This document shows, in pieces, positions 13,986-19,641 of a DNA stretch of 26,501 bases. Position 1 is the stretch's first letter; each line of letters begins with the position of its first letter. The position numbers were made by a program, and so were the translations under genes. Where the stretch lies: IMG/VR virus record IMGVR_UViG_2698536418_000022. The stretch is one strand, 5' to 3'. The stretch is from a virus (lineage: Duplodnaviria > Heunggongvirae > Uroviricota > Caudoviricetes). A model generated the notes under the pieces. The model was not told the DNA's origin. It ran no database searches and saw only the letters and a list, made by a program, of their open reading frames with translations.

Positions 13986-14360
13986 GACTCTCCAGCTCCT
14001 GTATCAGTCAGATAATTTCACGACGCTTTCCTGCTTATTGCCATCATCGACGGTCAGATTCTTACGCAATCCCACTGCGCTGACTGCATGTTCTCGCCGC
14101 CTCAGTGCGATTTTGACGGCCTTACCTTTCACCCCATCAAACCAGAATCCCTCACGTATTTTTCACGCTCAGCGTGAGAAATACGGCCATTCTGTCGTGT
14201 CGCTGCGACATCGTTAAGGGAACGCTATTTACCCCCCTGAAACGCGGGCTGTTCCCCCGTCACCTGCGCGCAGAAAAAACGCGTTTTTTTGTGCACGTAC
14301 GGATCCTTGACGGATCCAGCCACCACGCGGGCCGGAAGTACAAAAAGTCGTTCAAAAAAA

Positions 14361-14390
14361 TTGTGCAAACTTGTGCACTATCGTGCAAAC
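14361..14390. repeat. three 10-bp-phased copies of TGTGCA(A/C) (TTGTGCAAAC / TTGTGCACTA / TCGTGCAAAC)
   Basis: Direct inspection; helically phased short repeats in the cos-proximal intergenic region. Confidence 0.5.
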
Positions 14391-14413
14391 AAAAAAAGCG
14401 CCTTATCGGCGCT
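14385..14413 (-). terminator. rho-independent terminator for the minus-strand small gene ending at 14423
   Basis: On the minus strand: stem AGCGCC / GGCGCT with a 5 nt loop, followed by TTTTTTTGTTT. Confidence 0.7.
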
Positions 14414-14422
14414 TCAAAAGTA

Positions 14423-14692
14423 TCAATTGTTGCTGTTTATTAATCGCCAACCACGAACATATGCTTCATAGGCATCTCTGTGCCTTACAGTTCCAGCCTG
14501 GCTAAACGGAATGTTAGCTAAAACTAAATCATTCTGAGCCATAGCGCGTCCTTCAAGCGCATCTTTTATGCCTAGCTCAAAAGCACAGGCAGCGCATTTG
14601 TGCCGACCTTCTTGTCCTTGATATTCAGGGAGAGACAGAAATGTTGGATTATAACGATGAGGGTTCTTGCAAATACCTGTTTTAGCCCGCAC
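14423..14692 (-). CDS. hypothetical small protein (89 aa if GTG start at 14692; 39 aa if ATG at 14542)
   Basis: ORF followed by a strong terminator. Contains C/H-rich segment (CKNPH...HKCAAC). No confident family assignment from sequence alone. Confidence 0.35.
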   Translation of the reverse strand: MRAKTGICKNPHRYNPTFLSLPEYQGQEGRHKCAACAFELGIKDALEGRAMAQNDLVLANIPFSQAGTVRHRDAYEAYVRGWRLINSNN

Positions 14693-14715
14693 TTTATTTA
14701 CCTCATAGGAAAAAT

Positions 14716-14802
14716 ATGCGTGCCTTTACAGAGGTGCGTGTAAGCAATAAAATATACGACGCACATTTTGATTTACTTCGGAAGGCACGCATATCAGGTT
14801 AA
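14716..14802 (+). CDS. candidate 28-aa small ORF (MRAFTEVRVSNKIYDAHFDLLRKARISG); may instead be a small RNA
   Basis: ATG at 14716 with AGGA 6 nt upstream, followed 20 nt downstream by a strong plus-strand terminator. Internal inverted repeat GCGTGCCTT / AAGGCACGC. Confidence 0.3.
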   Translation: MRAFTEVRVSNKIYDAHFDLLRKARISG

Positions 14803-14821
14803 GTGAGTCCGACCGAGTTTT

Positions 14822-14856
14822 ACGCCCCAATAGTTGCTGCTATTGGGGCGTTTTGC
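14822..14856 (+). terminator. rho-independent terminator (plus strand)
   Basis: Stem CGCCCCAATAG / CTATTGGGGCG (11 bp) with a 6 nt loop, followed by TTTT. Confidence 0.7.
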
Positions 14857-15056
14857 ATGGACAATGCCGCGCAATTATCTTGTCGCTCACAATGCGAACG
14901 ATCTTACAAAAAGGCACATTACTGTCAAGATAATTGATCGTTTTAATCGATAGATAATAGACAATCTATTTGTTTAACAGATCGATTATTGAAGTAAGTG
15001 TGCCAAATGGAATGATACTGTCTCTATAAACGTGAGCATTTTTCGCGCAGATGCTT

Positions 15057-15368
15057 TTACTCAGGAAATAACGCCCGGATATTCCCAGCCATCTGGCTGG
15101 TTATCTTAGCCACTGGTGCAGACTGTGCTTCAAACTTTTTTGAGCTGATTTGTGTCACAGGTAACATCTCATCATCAGCCCATGCGGCCAGTCGGTAAGC
15201 CTCTGCCGGATTCGTCTTCAGAAGTGCCAGCCCGGCCAGAAAAGCCACGCGTTGGCCGCTTTTGCGGGCTTCTGGTGTAAGGCTGTCCAGCCAGGCGCAT
15301 GCTTCTCCTTCGTTCTTGACGGCGGCGGGCTTCAGATAGAAACTTATCCGTCTGGTTGGTGTCGTCAT
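15057..15368 (-). CDS. parR: ParR-like centromere-binding adaptor (type II partition)
   Basis: Start placed at ATG 15366-15368, 4 nt after the parM stop with AAGGAG RBS. N-terminal RRISFYLKP...VAFLAGLALL and C-terminal IRALFP resemble recalled plasmid R1 ParR (RRTIAFKLNP...LTAGLALY...LRSLFP). Confidence 0.7.
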   Translation of the reverse strand: MTTPTRRISFYLKPAAVKNEGEACAWLDSLTPEARKSGQRVAFLAGLALLKTNPAEAYRLAAWADDEMLPVTQISSKKFEAQSAPVAKITSQMAGNIRALFPE

Positions 15369-15372
15369 TGGT

Positions 15373-16332
15373 TTACTCCTTGTCCATTGCGTACAGCCCA
15401 TTAACCAGAGCAAACTGTGGCACCCCGTCCGCGATGAAAGTCGCATTAACTCCGCAGGCTTCGCGGATAGCGGGTGCCACAATCTCCGCCCCGCCACCGA
15501 CAACCATCACCCGCCCGTAACCCGAAAAAACCGCCAGCGCGCGGATCACGCGTTGTTTCAGTGTTTCTTCCTTTTCACGAATAACCGCCATCAGGCTGGC
15601 GTAATGCGCGTCATTGTGGATGTGCTGGCGCAGCCAGGCTTCATTATGGCGATGTTCGATAATGGTATTGGCGATGTGGTGACTGGTGCGCATACCGTTA
15701 GTGGCCATCACCGACAGTACGGCATCGGCCATAAGAGAAACGCCTACGTGTGGATCGCAAAACACCTGGCTGATACCTGCCAGTTGCCCCTGAACCTTTG
15801 CCACATCCAGCGTGGTTCCGCCCAAATCCACAATCAGCAGGGATTCAAACGGACTCATGTCAGCCAGTGCTTTAAAGCCAGCCGGAATGGATTCAGGCAT
15901 AACCCGTACGTTACGGATAGTGAATGCTTCGCCGTTCTGGTACTCCACCGGGCGCATGACGTTCGCTTTTTTGCGGTTGATGTTGGCCATGTCCGGCTGT
16001 GCGTTTGTGTCGAAATATTCGCTCAGTGGCAGGGTAACAACCACATCCACTTCCTGTGGCGTGATGTCTGATTTGACCAGCGCGTGATGAATGGCAATGA
16101 CATTCACATCGCTGTACTGGTATTGCGTGTCGGTCGTCTGGACAAAGCGATCGCTGACCGGATCAAAACCATAGCGCACGCCATCAAGCATGTAGTTAGC
16201 AGGCTGCGAGCCACCGAACGGCGCAGACCATTCCGACTTGAAGCTGTTCGGGCTGATGGCGTTGCGGCGTTCGCCGTTCTCAGTCCATGCCAGCTTGATG
16301 TTGGTGGAGCCGTCGTCGATGTAAATTTTCAT
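15373..16332 (-). CDS. parM: ParM/StbA-like actin-family segregation ATPase
   Basis: 319 aa. IDDGSTNIKL, ISPNSFK, YSDVNVIAIHHAL, VMPESIPAG, SLLIVDLGGTTLD, FSGYGRVMVVGGGAE blocks are near-collinear with recalled plasmid R1 ParM. ATG at 16330-16332 with AAGGA RBS. Confidence 0.85.
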   Translation of the reverse strand: MKIYIDDGSTNIKLAWTENGERRNAISPNSFKSEWSAPFGGSQPANYMLDGVRYGFDPVSDRFVQTTDTQYQYSDVNVIAIHHALVKSDITPQEVDVVVTLPLSEYFDTNAQPDMANINRKKANVMRPVEYQNGEAFTIRNVRVMPESIPAGFKALADMSPFESLLIVDLGGTTLDVAKVQGQLAGISQVFCDPHVGVSLMADAVLSVMATNGMRTSHHIANTIIEHRHNEAWLRQHIHNDAHYASLMAVIREKEETLKQRVIRALAVFSGYGRVMVVGGGAEIVAPAIREACGVNATFIADGVPQFALVNGLYAMDKE

Positions 16333-16363
16333 GTCGGTTTTCCTTATGTTGATTAATTAATCG

Positions 16364-16476
16364 TTTACGGGATTCTGAAATCCCGTTTTTGCCTGTTTTG
16401 TGCGCGCCTCATATATCGCTGCGCGTTTTTTGCTCATTTACGGGATTCGTGAGTCCCGTTTCTGTCTGTTTTTTGT
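16364..16476. repeat. two ~39 bp direct repeats (74 bp apart), each with an ACGGGATT...AATCCCGT-type palindrome and a T-rich tail; candidate parC-like centromere/promoter
   Basis: Copy 1 at 16364-16402 is intergenic upstream of parM. Copy 2 at 16438-16476 overlaps the 3' end of gene A. About 80 percent identical. Confidence 0.5.
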
Positions 16477-19255
16477 TTCCACTGGTCAGGCCACCCCGCA
16501 GCAGGTCTGCTTTGCGGCTGGCGCGTTCAGTGGTTTCACTGATTCTCTGTGCGTGCTCTGCGTCGCGGATGGCGCGCAGCATGTCAGAAAGCACGGTAAC
16601 GGGTGTTTTCATGGTGTTCTGGTCCTGCTGAAGTGTGGATGCCAGGCGTGCGGCGGCTTCAGGGTCTGATGCCCCCAGCTGTGCCAGATAGCTGGCGACC
16701 GGGTTATGGCGGATCTCCGTGCTGCTTACGCCATGATTACGGCTCAGACGCTGCCAGAGCTGCGTGATTCGGCTGTCCGGGCGGGTATCCGGTTTGCGTA
16801 CAATTTCAAATCCCTGCGGTGCAATGATGCTGCCGTCAACGTACAGACTGCCGCCCCGTAACAGGTGCTGCATCTGTTGTTCACCGATATGCAGGCCGAG
16901 AGATTCAGCAGACTCCCGCCATTCTTTAGCGAGTAACTCGTGGTTATCAGGCAAAGGCCGCTGCTGTTTGCGGCTCTGTGTCCAGTTCTGCATTTCATCG
17001 CTGCTGTTTTTTGCCTGTTTGTCACGAAGCGAACGCATCAGCGCCCGGCGTTCGTGCCGTTTCAGTGAGCGCATCCATTCATTTACTTCAACGCCGTCAG
17101 GAAGCTGCGGCCACGGTGCTGGCCGTTCTTCCGGCTGTTCTGTCCCGTTGTTGCCTGTTTCCTGTACACGGGGACAGTTATTGCCACGAGTCCGAGTCCA
17201 AGGGGCGGCAGGGCCGCCCTGAAGGTCAAAACCATTTTCGCGGGCGCTGTCTTCCGCTTCCGGTTTGCGTCTTACCAGCTTCCAGTTATCCGGATGCGTG
17301 CATACGCGGGAAGACTCCCCAATGAGCGGCGACCAGATCCCGTAAATCTGTACGCTCTGTTCACCGTAATCGTTCAGCTCATCTGCGAGGTCGTAGGCGG
17401 TGCGAATCAGGTAGTCTTTGCGTGGAACAAGTACGCCACCCTGTTTCTCAATGTAGGTGGCAAAACATCCGGCATCAGCGGCAGCGAGTACCGCGTCCAT
17501 TGCGTCATCCTTCAGCCGTTGCGGGCCTTCCGGATTGCGTGCCATCTGGCTGGCAAGGCGGCGCAGTTCACGCCACACCTGACGGGAGGGGATGCCAAAG
17601 AACTGGAACTGACGGACCCGGTGAAGGCGCGCCCAGCCGATGGCGCGCTCCACGCTCTCGGCCATTGATTTACCTGTTTCGTGGTCAACGCGTGGCTTGC
17701 CCGTTTTCGGGTCGATGCCATCCACGGCGCGGCTGTCCAGGTTCTTTCCGATGTAGGTGGCGATGTAGCTGGTTGGCGTGCCTTTTGAGCCGTCGACGTA
17801 CTCCGCCTTAAAACGCGGAGTTATGTCATCGCCCAGCTCGTGGCGGTCTTCCTGAATGGCAATATCGCAGACGTGGGACACGATGGTTTCAATCTCGTCC
17901 GGATGTGCAAAGACCATCATATGCCAGTGCACAGTGCCGTCATGGTGAGGCTCCACCGTGCGGATGCCATACCAGCGCAGGCCGTCGCGGTTCAGTTTTT
18001 TGCGGACCGCCGCAAAAAACGTGTTAACCAGGTAATCGCTGGAGTCGCGCATAGTGGCCCCGTTCCATTTGGGATTCGGATGACCGTTCTCCGTTGTTGC
18101 GTGGTATTTTGACGGGCAGGTGACAGTCAGAAACACCGCTCTGTCGCCACGGGCTTCGGCCAGAAGTTCCAGCCCCTTCATGGTGGCCATCATTTCTGCC
18201 TTACGGTGAACCGGGTTACTTACTCCCGCGTAATACACCGTCTCGAGATCAATCGTGAACCCGTCTTCATTTTCCAGCATGAAACTTTTCAGGAAATCGC
18301 GTGTTTTCTCGCGCTGTGCGCGAAACTCGCTTAACGCGTCCTGGCTCAGATAGGGTGATGTTTTTCTGGAAACCAGACAGGCGGCGCGGAGTTGTTCTTC
18401 CCGCCACTCGCAACGTAACAGCCACAGTTTGCGTTTCCACCATTCCGCACAGGTCAGGCGAAGGATTGCGCCCGGCAGCAGCTCCGTGTCCGGTTCGTTC
18501 CTCCGGTCTTTGTCTGTTGTCAGTGCGTCATAATGTGGAGGCATGGCGTGCAGGTGTAACGCCATGCGGGCCAGCATCTGATACGCCTTCAGCGTTACAT
18601 CCATGGTCAGCTCACCATCGGTCGCGCCAAAGCCATCGCAGAGTTTTTCGAAGGTGCTGCTGAACATCGCCGCCGTCATGGTGGCCAGCGTCTGTATCTG
18701 GTGCTTGTTGAGCTGCGGCAGGTAAAGCAAATCATCCAGGCGTTCGCGTCCGGCAAGGGAGCGATAACCCGGTGTCAGCCAGCGGTGGTCGGTGCGGTCC
18801 AGGCGTTCGAATATTTTGCGCAGGGTTCCGCGCGCGTAGCGTTCAGCCTGCCAGCTCTTTTTGCCTTTCTGGCGATCGGCTTCCTGTTTTTTGCGCAGGA
18901 AAGAGAGGTGGCGGCTCAGAGGTTCACGCAGATAAACGGGAAGCACCTTCAGTGTGGCAAAAGCACGGGCCACCGGGTCTTGTTCTGTTGCCTGACGCTT
19001 GCTGATGATGCTTTGTGCCAGCTTTTCACGCTGTCCGGCTTCCTCAAGGGATGCCATGAGTTTTTTACCCACGGTGGATTGTGCGAAAAAGGCTTCCTCC
19101 TTCGCTTCCTGTTCTTCCAGAGCCTTTTTGTCTGCCTCAAGGTAGTAACGGATGGCGCGTTGCAGGTCGGTTTCAGTTTCCTGCCTGTGCTCCGTAAATC
19201 TGGCCGGATCAATGGCTGGCCGTGGTTCATTCCAGCTCCATGCAAACTCATTCAT
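16409..19255 (-). CDS. replication initiation endonuclease (P2 gpA-like rolling-circle initiator)
   Basis: Blocks TLTCPSRFHATT-like, PNPKWNGAT, HHDGTVHWHMMVF, AAADAGCFATYI, GGVLVPRK match recalled P2 gpA. Start placed at ATG 19253-19255 (track start is GTG at 19282). About 190 aa longer than P2 A at the C-terminus. Confidence 0.85.
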   Translation of the reverse strand: MNEFAWSWNEPRPAIDPARFTEHRQETETDLQRAIRYYLEADKKALEEQEAKEEAFFAQSTVGKKLMASLEEAGQREKLAQSIISKRQATEQDPVARAFATLKVLPVYLREPLSRHLSFLRKKQEADRQKGKKSWQAERYARGTLRKIFERLDRTDHRWLTPGYRSLAGRERLDDLLYLPQLNKHQIQTLATMTAAMFSSTFEKLCDGFGATDGELTMDVTLKAYQMLARMALHLHAMPPHYDALTTDKDRRNEPDTELLPGAILRLTCAEWWKRKLWLLRCEWREEQLRAACLVSRKTSPYLSQDALSEFRAQREKTRDFLKSFMLENEDGFTIDLETVYYAGVSNPVHRKAEMMATMKGLELLAEARGDRAVFLTVTCPSKYHATTENGHPNPKWNGATMRDSSDYLVNTFFAAVRKKLNRDGLRWYGIRTVEPHHDGTVHWHMMVFAHPDEIETIVSHVCDIAIQEDRHELGDDITPRFKAEYVDGSKGTPTSYIATYIGKNLDSRAVDGIDPKTGKPRVDHETGKSMAESVERAIGWARLHRVRQFQFFGIPSRQVWRELRRLASQMARNPEGPQRLKDDAMDAVLAAADAGCFATYIEKQGGVLVPRKDYLIRTAYDLADELNDYGEQSVQIYGIWSPLIGESSRVCTHPDNWKLVRRKPEAEDSARENGFDLQGGPAAPWTRTRGNNCPRVQETGNNGTEQPEERPAPWPQLPDGVEVNEWMRSLKRHERRALMRSLRDKQAKNSSDEMQNWTQSRKQQRPLPDNHELLAKEWRESAESLGLHIGEQQMQHLLRGGSLYVDGSIIAPQGFEIVRKPDTRPDSRITQLWQRLSRNHGVSSTEIRHNPVASYLAQLGASDPEAAARLASTLQQDQNTMKTPVTVLSDMLRAIRDAEHAQRISETTERASRKADLLRGGLTSGNKKQTETGLTNPVNEQKTRSDI

Positions 19256-19641
19256 GGCTGGTATCCCGTCACGCGCTGCCACTCCTGCGAGAAGAGGGCA
19301 GAAAGGCGGTTAAATTCAGCGGTGTATTCACTCAGCGAGGCACACCCGCCAGCAGTGCGATGCGCCAGCATTGCCGCAAATACGGAGGCCGGGGAGTCGT
19401 AATACGCCAGCAGTGATTCTCCGTGTGGTGTCAGGCAGTGCAACGCCAGCCCGTGTGGTGTGAAGTCCACGCGGTAGCAGTCGTCTACTGTGAAATAAAG
19501 GGTGTCTGCATTCTCCGGTTTTGTGGTGCGTGCTCTGTTGTCACGACCACGGATGTAGAGATCAAATAATCCCTGAAGAACGGGAGCCAGACGGGTGTCC
19601 TGTGTGCGCACCCATCTTGTGAAGTCATGAGCGTCAATCAT
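19252..19641 (-). CDS. hypothetical early-operon protein (129 aa)
   Basis: ATG at 19639-19641; stop overlaps the A start by 4 nt (translational coupling). Confidence 0.5.
   Translation of the reverse strand: MIDAHDFTRWVRTQDTRLAPVLQGLFDLYIRGRDNRARTTKPENADTLYFTVDDCYRVDFTPHGLALHCLTPHGESLLAYYDSPASVFAAMLAHRTAGGCASLSEYTAEFNRLSALFSQEWQRVTGYQP

Follow-up and report, generated by a model that had tools for sequence, protein, structure and literature searches.

Why does a P2-like prophage carry two closely similar direct repeats immediately upstream of parM, a gene for an actin-like segregation ATPase? The repeats lie in the 26,501-nt IMG/VR virus record IMGVR_UViG_2698536418_000022 (Caudoviricetes), the whole stretch of DNA analysed here and hereafter called the window, and an initial annotation of this sequence had proposed that they occupy the place expected of a parC promoter and centromere serving parM and the adjoining parR. 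Our analysis suggests that the repeats are probably binding sites for the small adaptor protein ParR, and that they would constitute the cis-acting site of a mobile parMR cassette extending from about 15057 to 16476, while a centromere activity of the parC type is less certain than their role as ParR sites.

A repeat search of the window revealed two direct copies of 42 nt on the minus strand, one proximal (16361-16402) and one distal (16434-16475) to parM, which are 81% identical and lie 73 bp apart from start to start. They were first described as ~39 bp long and about 80% identical, and over these 39 nt 32 positions (82%) agree; the coordinates of the first copy (16364-16402) were correct, while those of the second had been shifted by 1 nt and should read 16437-16475. 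Together the repeats span 29 to 143 nt upstream of the parM ATG (16332). Copy 1 is intergenic, in the 76-bp gap between the end of a gpA-like gene and this ATG, and copy 2 lies, as had been noted, inside the 3' end of the gpA-like open reading frame (ORF; 19282..16409, minus strand, stop codon TGA at 16411-16409), within its last ~22 codons; the inter-repeat spacer (16403-16433) holds the gpA stop codon. The hairpin-capable palindromes and T-rich tails ascribed to the two copies are both present. The palindromes have 8-bp arms and a 4-nt loop, ACGGGATT-CTGA-AATCCCGT at 16367-16386 in the proximal copy and ACGGGATT-CGTG-AGTCCCGT, with one mismatch, at 16440-16459 in the distal copy. When up to three mismatches were allowed, the core pattern TTTACGGGATTCNNNANTCCCGTTT occurred twice in the window, at the two repeats, and in none of 100 shuffles. 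Read in parM sense, the dyad-symmetric 16-bp boxes at the heart of the repeats are GGGATT-TCAG-AATCCC (proximal, 16369-16384) and GGGACT-CACG-AATCCC (distal, 16442-16457), with GGGATT instead of GGGACT in the distal box of most E. coli relatives. RNA of parM sense was calculated to fold with -10.7 kcal/mol at the proximal and -8.7 kcal/mol at the distal box. In addition, AA dinucleotides are phased at 10.4 bp over the 140 bp between 16340 and 16480, a signal that was equally strong in only 0.2% of 500 shuffles. An Rfam search of 14200-16700 (E <= 1) gave no match at the repeats.

Distant relatives indicate which features of these repeats are conserved. In phage, plasmid, GTDB-genome and IMG/VR collections the relatives of ParM were either at least 94% or, on plasmids, about 50% identical; prophage lineages of 53 to 62% identity were found by a large protein search, and further IMG/VR scans with the ParM proteins of Hafnia and Plesiomonas yielded one extra locus, of the Enterobacter type. 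The P2-like prophages of Hafnia (62% ParM identity), Plesiomonas (62%), Serratia (57%) and Enterobacter (53%) have in common the gene order gpA ... parM-parR ... (ogr) portal. Although the region preceding parM has diverged in Hafnia and Plesiomonas, two 16-bp dyad boxes of the strict pattern GGGWYN-N4-WAHCCC are kept there, and this pattern has only two matches in each 9-kb locus and likewise in the 26.5-kb window. The boxes start 125 and 52 nt upstream of the ATG in E. coli (spacing 73 bp), 128 and 55 nt upstream in Hafnia (73 bp) and 131 and 59 nt upstream in Plesiomonas (72 bp). Repeat conservation in homologous loci, by which the initial annotation had proposed to check its reading, is thus seen in the number of boxes, their spacing and their distance from the ATG, and the 3' flank RNAAAYG is kept in both genera as well. 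In contrast, the boxes of Hafnia and Plesiomonas fold with only -4.2 to -4.9 kcal/mol, have 10-nt loops in three of four cases and show no T-runs on either strand. Conservation of the dyad GGG-N10-CCC but not of the hairpin energy fits recognition of double-stranded DNA, and the conserved feature is a dyad on double-stranded DNA, held at a fixed distance and helical phase, rather than a nucleic-acid structure. The hairpin or terminator-like appearance of the repeats is probably incidental and specific to the E. coli lineage. The ParR proteins of the Serratia/Enterobacter-type prophages, whose N-terminal head reads NRKISFYLKP, are accompanied by a different candidate site (loci L022, L023, L024, L110 and L113), which consists of 19-20-nt inverted arms, GGGAACGA.ATAGAAAAAT (GGGAACGAAATAGAAAAAT / ATTTTTCTATTTCGTTCC), 26-28 nt apart; in the Serratia locus L022 the 5' flank, ACAGGCAAAAACGGGA, does not differ from the proximal flank in E. 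coli.

The boxes also travel with parMR. In L098 and L108, two other prophages of E. coli, the gpA allele differs from that of the window and parM is preceded by an unrelated ORF of 155 amino acids; here homology to the window sets in at about 16476, where the distal repeat has its outer edge. In Hafnia both boxes are located inside the 3' end of another unrelated ORF of 167 amino acids. The Hafnia ORF and the 155-amino acid ORF of L108 have no Pfam match, and the C-terminus of the window's gpA showed no homology to these extra ORFs upstream of parM. The converse arrangement was found in E. coli MMC-J-0050 (L107; NZ_CM128547.1, 2218179-2224558), which carries the window's type of gpA with 95% nucleotide identity up to 16521, while an AAA-family ATPase and an S8-family peptidase replace parMR in the cargo slot; this pair in the gpA-portal hotspot of P2 may have a defence-type function. 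A strict pattern scan detected no boxes in this locus, and its gpA ends ~20 codons earlier. The initial annotation had held that repeats conserved in relatives without parMR would point to a function of gene A or of replication, and this relative with the same gpA type is boxless. At the downstream edge, the match between the window and many phages is confined to the DNA from the parR stop codon (15057) onward. The homology edges on both sides therefore delimit a mobile unit of ~15057-16476, of which the repeats are the sole conserved non-coding DNA and ParR is the sole encoded DNA-binding protein. The cassette occupies the gpA-portal cargo hotspot of the prophage. Different upstream ORFs gain the same ...KQTETGLTNPVNEQKTR... 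tail, and the ~20 terminal codons of what is annotated as 'replication endonuclease' (16409-16475) are read-in from the cassette and not part of gpA proper. A centromere downstream of parR was also considered and rejected, since phage-to-phage homology ends precisely at the parR stop codon and the AT-rich DNA at 14900-15030 is variable cargo.

Variation within the species was assessed in 50 distinct E. coli-type upstream sequences. Mean nucleotide diversity (pi) was 0.03-0.05 in the box arms, 0.11-0.25 in the box loops and 0.073 in the inter-repeat spacer, the most variable stretch in this population, with 18 of its 31 sites variable; the value for gpA third codon positions was 0.056. The box arms thus vary less than the loops and the spacer, although the contrast is modest. 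Changes in single arms, such as CAGG in L098 and CCTG in ~18 loci, are uncompensated, so that covariation gives no evidence for a selected RNA or single-stranded DNA structure. ParR is mosaic among the P88-like loci (L027-L106), with at least four very divergent alleles alongside ~98%-identical ParM proteins, while its first 14 residues, MTTPTRRISFYLKP, which we refer to as the reading head, are invariant across the divergent alleles, and the boxes are unchanged too. This pattern suggests that recombination or diversifying selection may act on the body and linker of ParR. No covariation between ParR and the boxes was seen within E. coli, a comparison that is uninformative within the species because the reading head is invariant.

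The two proteins of the cassette are consistent with such a site. The minus-strand gene order of the locus is gpA, parM, parR. The gpA-like replication endonuclease (957 amino acids, 16409..19282; Pfam Phage_GPA, 1.5e-129) lies outside the cassette except for its last codons. ParM (319 amino acids, 15373..16332) was identified by the domains StbA_N (9.7e-81) and ParM C-terminal domain (3e-68), and ParR (103 amino acids, 15057..15368), whose stop codon forms the other edge of the cassette, by PF10784 Plasmid_stab_B (9.8e-24), so that the Pfam domains bear out the identities first assigned to both genes. ParM matched R1 ParM (PDB 1MWK) with E = 7.7e-92 over residues 1-316, while a ParR-family profile built from the window's ParR and its relatives matched pB171 ParR (PDB 2JD3; E = 6.2e-17) as the sole solved structure. 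In the ParR alignment both the N-terminal strand of the ribbon-helix-helix (RHH) fold, TRRISFYLKP, and the C-terminal N..LFP tail (N96/F101) are kept; in characterised systems the C-terminal part of ParR contacts ParM (PMC5016525). Judged by their sequences, ParM and ParR clearly belong to the R1/pB171 family and are seemingly intact. The locus hence shares with type II partition systems (ParMRC, R1/StbAB family) the actin-like ParM, a small ParR adaptor encoded downstream of parM with, at the sequence level, an RHH N-terminus and a C-terminal tail, and a repeated cis site directly upstream of parM, whereas the R1-type parC architecture, with two sets of five tandem 10-11-bp iterons flanking a promoter, is absent.

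The window itself is a P2-like prophage of the P88/CP-933T type (P88/Xuanwuvirus). Its region 14800-17000 is 95-98% identical to phages P88, 520873 and 503458 and to Citrobacter phiSM, and a 1-kb probe over the repeats is 100% identical to E. coli O157:H7 FRIK944. The same probe matched 1372 of 5426 complete E. coli genomes (~25%), nearly always on the chromosome, and the carriers include O157:H7 EDL933 as well as FRIK944.

How might these components work together? We infer that ParR dimers, through their RHH domains, bind both dyad boxes, GGGATT-N4-AATCCC together with the adjoining RNAAAYG flank, probably with two dimers per box. The 73 bp between the boxes correspond to ~7 helical turns, which would leave both exposed on one face of the helix; the surrounding DNA of the E. 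coli lineage has A-tracts phased at ~10.4 bp. Filament ends of ParM could then engage the conserved C-terminal tails of the bound ParR, which would make the site a parC-type centromere. The parC reading is supported by characterised type II systems, in which a set of repeats directly precedes parM and serves as parC (PMC2241845, PMC5016525). The invariant ParR reading head alongside unchanged boxes, and the different site that accompanies the NRKISFYLKP head, likewise speak for ParR binding. ParR on the proximal box, whose centre lies ~44 nt upstream of the ATG, could in addition throttle parMR expression. As no terminator or promoter separates gpA from parM, parMR may be read through from the early operon. 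However, several observations weigh against this interpretation. Direct tandem repeats are the targets described for characterised ParR proteins (PMC9426499), and 10 iterons take part in the R1 segrosome (PMC2241845), whereas the present site has merely two repeat units, which are dyad-symmetric; the boxes might therefore serve as an operator only. No sigma-70 promoter above the scan threshold was found on the minus strand in or between the repeats (16333-16480), so that of the parC promoter/centromere initially proposed the parC part is backed by the comparative evidence and the promoter part is not. The 10.4-bp A-tract phasing is absent from Hafnia and Plesiomonas, the inter-box spacer is poorly conserved, and the constraint on the box arms is just modestly above that on gpA third codon positions. 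Moreover, ~18 of 80 close relatives have AATCCT in the proximal box with ParR unchanged, and in one natural variant (L057; IMGVR_UViG_2657245439_000011) the site has collapsed to a single box, the repeats having recombined with a 73-bp deletion that fused the gpA reading frame to the proximal repeat.

Other explanations of the repeats have to be weighed against ParR binding. Their appearance is that of plus-strand Rho-independent terminators, which might prevent antisense or convergent transcription that arrives through parR-parM, out of the cargo or late region, from entering gene A. Both copies were flagged as terminator-like on the plus strand (8-bp stem with 4 GC pairs, 4-nt loop and T-rich tail; hairpins of -8.7 and -10.7 kcal/mol), and cargo genes located downstream of parR are oriented towards it in some relatives, such as a DUF3800 gene in L108. 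However, while a stem-loop and a U-run are present, no transcription unit was found on the same strand that would end there: from 14753 to the repeats there is no plus-strand ORF or promoter-like site, in agreement with the earlier remark that the copies look like plus-strand terminators although no plus-strand gene lies upstream (none between 14753 and 16360), and the sole plus-strand promoter-like site, at 14725-14753, has a T-tailed hairpin of its own at 14822-14851. Nor are these features conserved in orthologous loci, as Hafnia and Plesiomonas keep the position and spacing of the boxes but lose the stable stem and the T-run. A terminator function as the explanation of the repeats is thus unlikely, whereas a secondary role of this kind in E. 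coli alone is possible. It also seems improbable that the boxes are operators for another regulator of parMR or gpA, be it a host factor or a protein that the phage encodes elsewhere than in the cassette, and have no role as a centromere. Like many repressor operators the boxes are dyad-symmetric, the upstream gene contains the distal one in its 3' end, and the binding of ParR is a prediction; nevertheless, the boxes move with parMR among different upstream genes and are absent where parMR is absent, ParR is the only DNA-binding protein that the cassette provides, and no Rfam family matched.

The position of the distal copy exactly at the cassette boundary, the ability of the repeats to recombine, as in L057, which lost one copy and 73 bp, and the moderate constraint within the species could all be expected if the repeats were a non-functional duplication or recombination scar, left at the junction by the insertion of parMR beside gene A and hitch-hiking with the cassette. 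However, although the repeats have diverged in sequence between the three genera (ParM 62% identical), all three have retained the GGG-N10-CCC dyad in two copies, 72-73 bp from each other and at nearly the same distance from the ATG, which disfavours a neutral scar and makes this origin decidedly unlikely. A relation to gene A is suggested by the location of copy 2 inside the gpA reading frame, and P2-type ori sites are located inside gene A. The repeats could accordingly be an ori, a gpA-binding site or coding sequence for the gpA C-terminus, or they could form hairpins in a gpA-parM mRNA that affect processing, stability or translational coupling, or encode a 26-amino acid peptide (ATG at 16436); both copies encode similar peptides, KKQTETGLTNPVNE and TKQAKTGFQNPVND, and the hairpins are stable in E. 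coli. Yet a P2-type ori or gpA target would be present wherever its cognate gpA is, regardless of the cargo, and the same type of gpA without parMR (L107) ends ~20 codons earlier and is boxless, while L108, with another gene upstream, has the boxes. The distal box is entered by unrelated ORFs in L108 and Hafnia, so that the encoded tail is incidental, and the mRNA hairpin is not conserved in Hafnia and Plesiomonas; taken as a group, these possibilities are highly improbable. The 26-amino acid minus-strand ORF (ATG 16436 to TAA) was rejected as a gene, having no Shine-Dalgarno sequence, 7 of 26 residues changed in a Salmonella relative (ParM 97% identical) and no ATG at the equivalent position in Hafnia, and different upstream ORFs enter the distal repeat.

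The preferred reading of the boxes as ParR sites can be compared with known partition systems, whose parC architectures are known to differ widely. The parC site of plasmid R1 comprises 159 bp, with five 11-bp direct iterons on either side of a 39-bp promoter region, and approximately one ParR dimer is bound per iteron (PMC2241845). An array of this type is plainly visible upstream of stbA in the IncF plasmid L003, and the plasmid ParM loci L004-L007 have similar multi-iteron arrays flanking good -35/-10 pairs. Like R1 parC (ParMRC; StbA/StbB of R100), the site described here lies directly upstream of parM and is split into two blocks, and its genes are related, with ParM 46% identical to the R1/R100-type StbA of an IncF plasmid and ParR belonging to PF10784. 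Both sites are rich in A-tracts, phased at 10.4 bp here and 10.6 bp in R1, and contain a CCC-plus-A-tract motif; R1 parC is reported to be strongly curved. Likewise, the distal box of Hafnia, AACCCAAAAAC, is similar to CCCAAAAAC, the unit repeated upstream of stbA in L003. In contrast to the two blocks of five tandem iterons in R1, the present site has two 42-bp repeats, each around a 16-20-bp dyad; no promoter was detected in its variable spacer, whereas the 39-bp spacer of R1 holds a clear one; the upstream ORF extends with its 3' end into the distal unit; and its replicon is an integrated P2-like prophage. A promoter of the R1 type in the inter-repeat spacer was rejected, as none exceeded the scan threshold in this most variable stretch and no -10/-35 pair shared by the three lineages could be recognized by eye. 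The best candidate found by eye, a weak TTCAGA-16-ATTAAT overlapping the proximal box, is unconvincing.

Other repeat arrangements have been reported for further ParR proteins. The ParR protein of pB171 is reported to bind just two 10-bp direct repeats, while that of pCW3 uses four 17-bp repeats and that of pSK41 20-bp repeats (PMC9426499). The pB171 par1 system is also the one whose ParR structure (2JD3) was matched by our ParR-family profile, but its repeats, compared here by their description, are short and direct and not dyad boxes 73 bp apart. Omega of pSM19035 and ParG with parH of TP228 illustrate that RHH dimers can bind direct and inverted short repeats equivalently and serve as both repressors and centromere-binding proteins (PMC5016525); they belong, however, to type Ib systems with a ParA ATPase, are homologous to ParR no further than the fold and use many 4-7-bp sub-sites. 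According to the passages on AlpAC/alpS of the Corynebacterium prophage CGP3 in PMC5539076 and PMC4446434, that prophage likewise combines an actin-like protein with a DNA-binding adaptor and its specific sites, and AlpAC has been implicated in transport and replication of phage DNA; since the actin-like family, the adaptor and the host phylum differ, a functional parallel is speculative. Taking these comparisons together, the sequence evidence most likely identifies the site as a further example of the known type II partition site, with a compact dyad-box architecture.

The cassette as such has been noticed before. A putative partition system in the P2 gpA-gpQ hotspot, present in about a quarter of E. 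coli P2-like phages, is mentioned in passing by Rousset et al. (2022; PMC9122126), and as far as the passages on partition genes in that article go it is the same cassette in the same location; no description of a cis site was found in these passages. For partition in P88/Xuanwuvirus phages, no study of this site was found in the literature. With about a quarter of complete E. coli genomes carrying the cassette, an R1-type segregation machine inside an integrating P2-like phage is a common feature of the species, and with its cis site located the role of ParMRC in P2-like phages becomes testable with a 145-bp fragment and six-base targets (GGG/CCC). If ParR indeed uses just two dyad-symmetric boxes, the range of type II centromere architectures would be wider than the described examples. 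For annotation, the assignment of the terminal ~20 'replication endonuclease' codons to cassette read-in is of direct value.

As to the biological role, ParMR and its two-box site might together provide a cargo function of the phage in the P2 anti-phage/cargo hotspot and not plasmid maintenance, a suggestion that we consider rather unlikely as it stands. The cassette may position or separate replicating or excised circular genomes after induction, as AlpAC does for CGP3, may allow persistence as a low-copy episome, or may act as a partition-incompatibility weapon that would mis-segregate incoming plasmids or phages with related sites; in each of these roles, a minimal centromere of two dyad boxes would be enough for the capture of ParM filaments. 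One record bears on the idea that the cassette allows the phage to be maintained as a plasmid. The E. coli record pZ1323PEC0009-2 (L112; NZ_CP148288.1), circular, 34,461 bp long and deposited as a plasmid, has 96.7% identity to the gpA-parM-parR segment and is of whole-phage-genome size (P88 has 35.8 kb); a 5-kb stretch of it alone was inspected, and the record is that of an episomal form or else was assembled from induced phage DNA.

Two further features of the locus deserve mention. Between the proximal box and the Shine-Dalgarno sequence of parM, the 9-mer ATTAATCAA (16349-16357, minus strand) is shared without change by the loci of E. coli, Hafnia and Plesiomonas, whose upstream regions were read directly, despite their diverged flanks; it is possibly a weak -10 region or a leader element, and no promoter over the scan threshold was found at 16349-16357. 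The Shine-Dalgarno sequence itself, AAGGA (16341-16345, minus strand), is part of an ATAAGGA kept in E. coli and Hafnia, with AAAGGGA in Plesiomonas. Downstream of the cassette, the region 14700-14930 contains facing sigma-70-like promoters, TTTACA-17-TAAAAT on the plus strand (14725..14753) and TTGACA-16-TAAGAT on the minus strand (14928..14901), and between them a hairpin with an 11-bp stem (14822-14851) and a TTTTGC tail on the plus strand. In this region Rfam gave only sub-threshold matches, to ctRNA and sar terminator stems. The promoters and the hairpin lie upstream of an 89-amino acid ORF (14692..14423) that has no Pfam match, and the arrangement looks, from its sequence, like an antisense-RNA-controlled cargo gene in the P2 hotspot.

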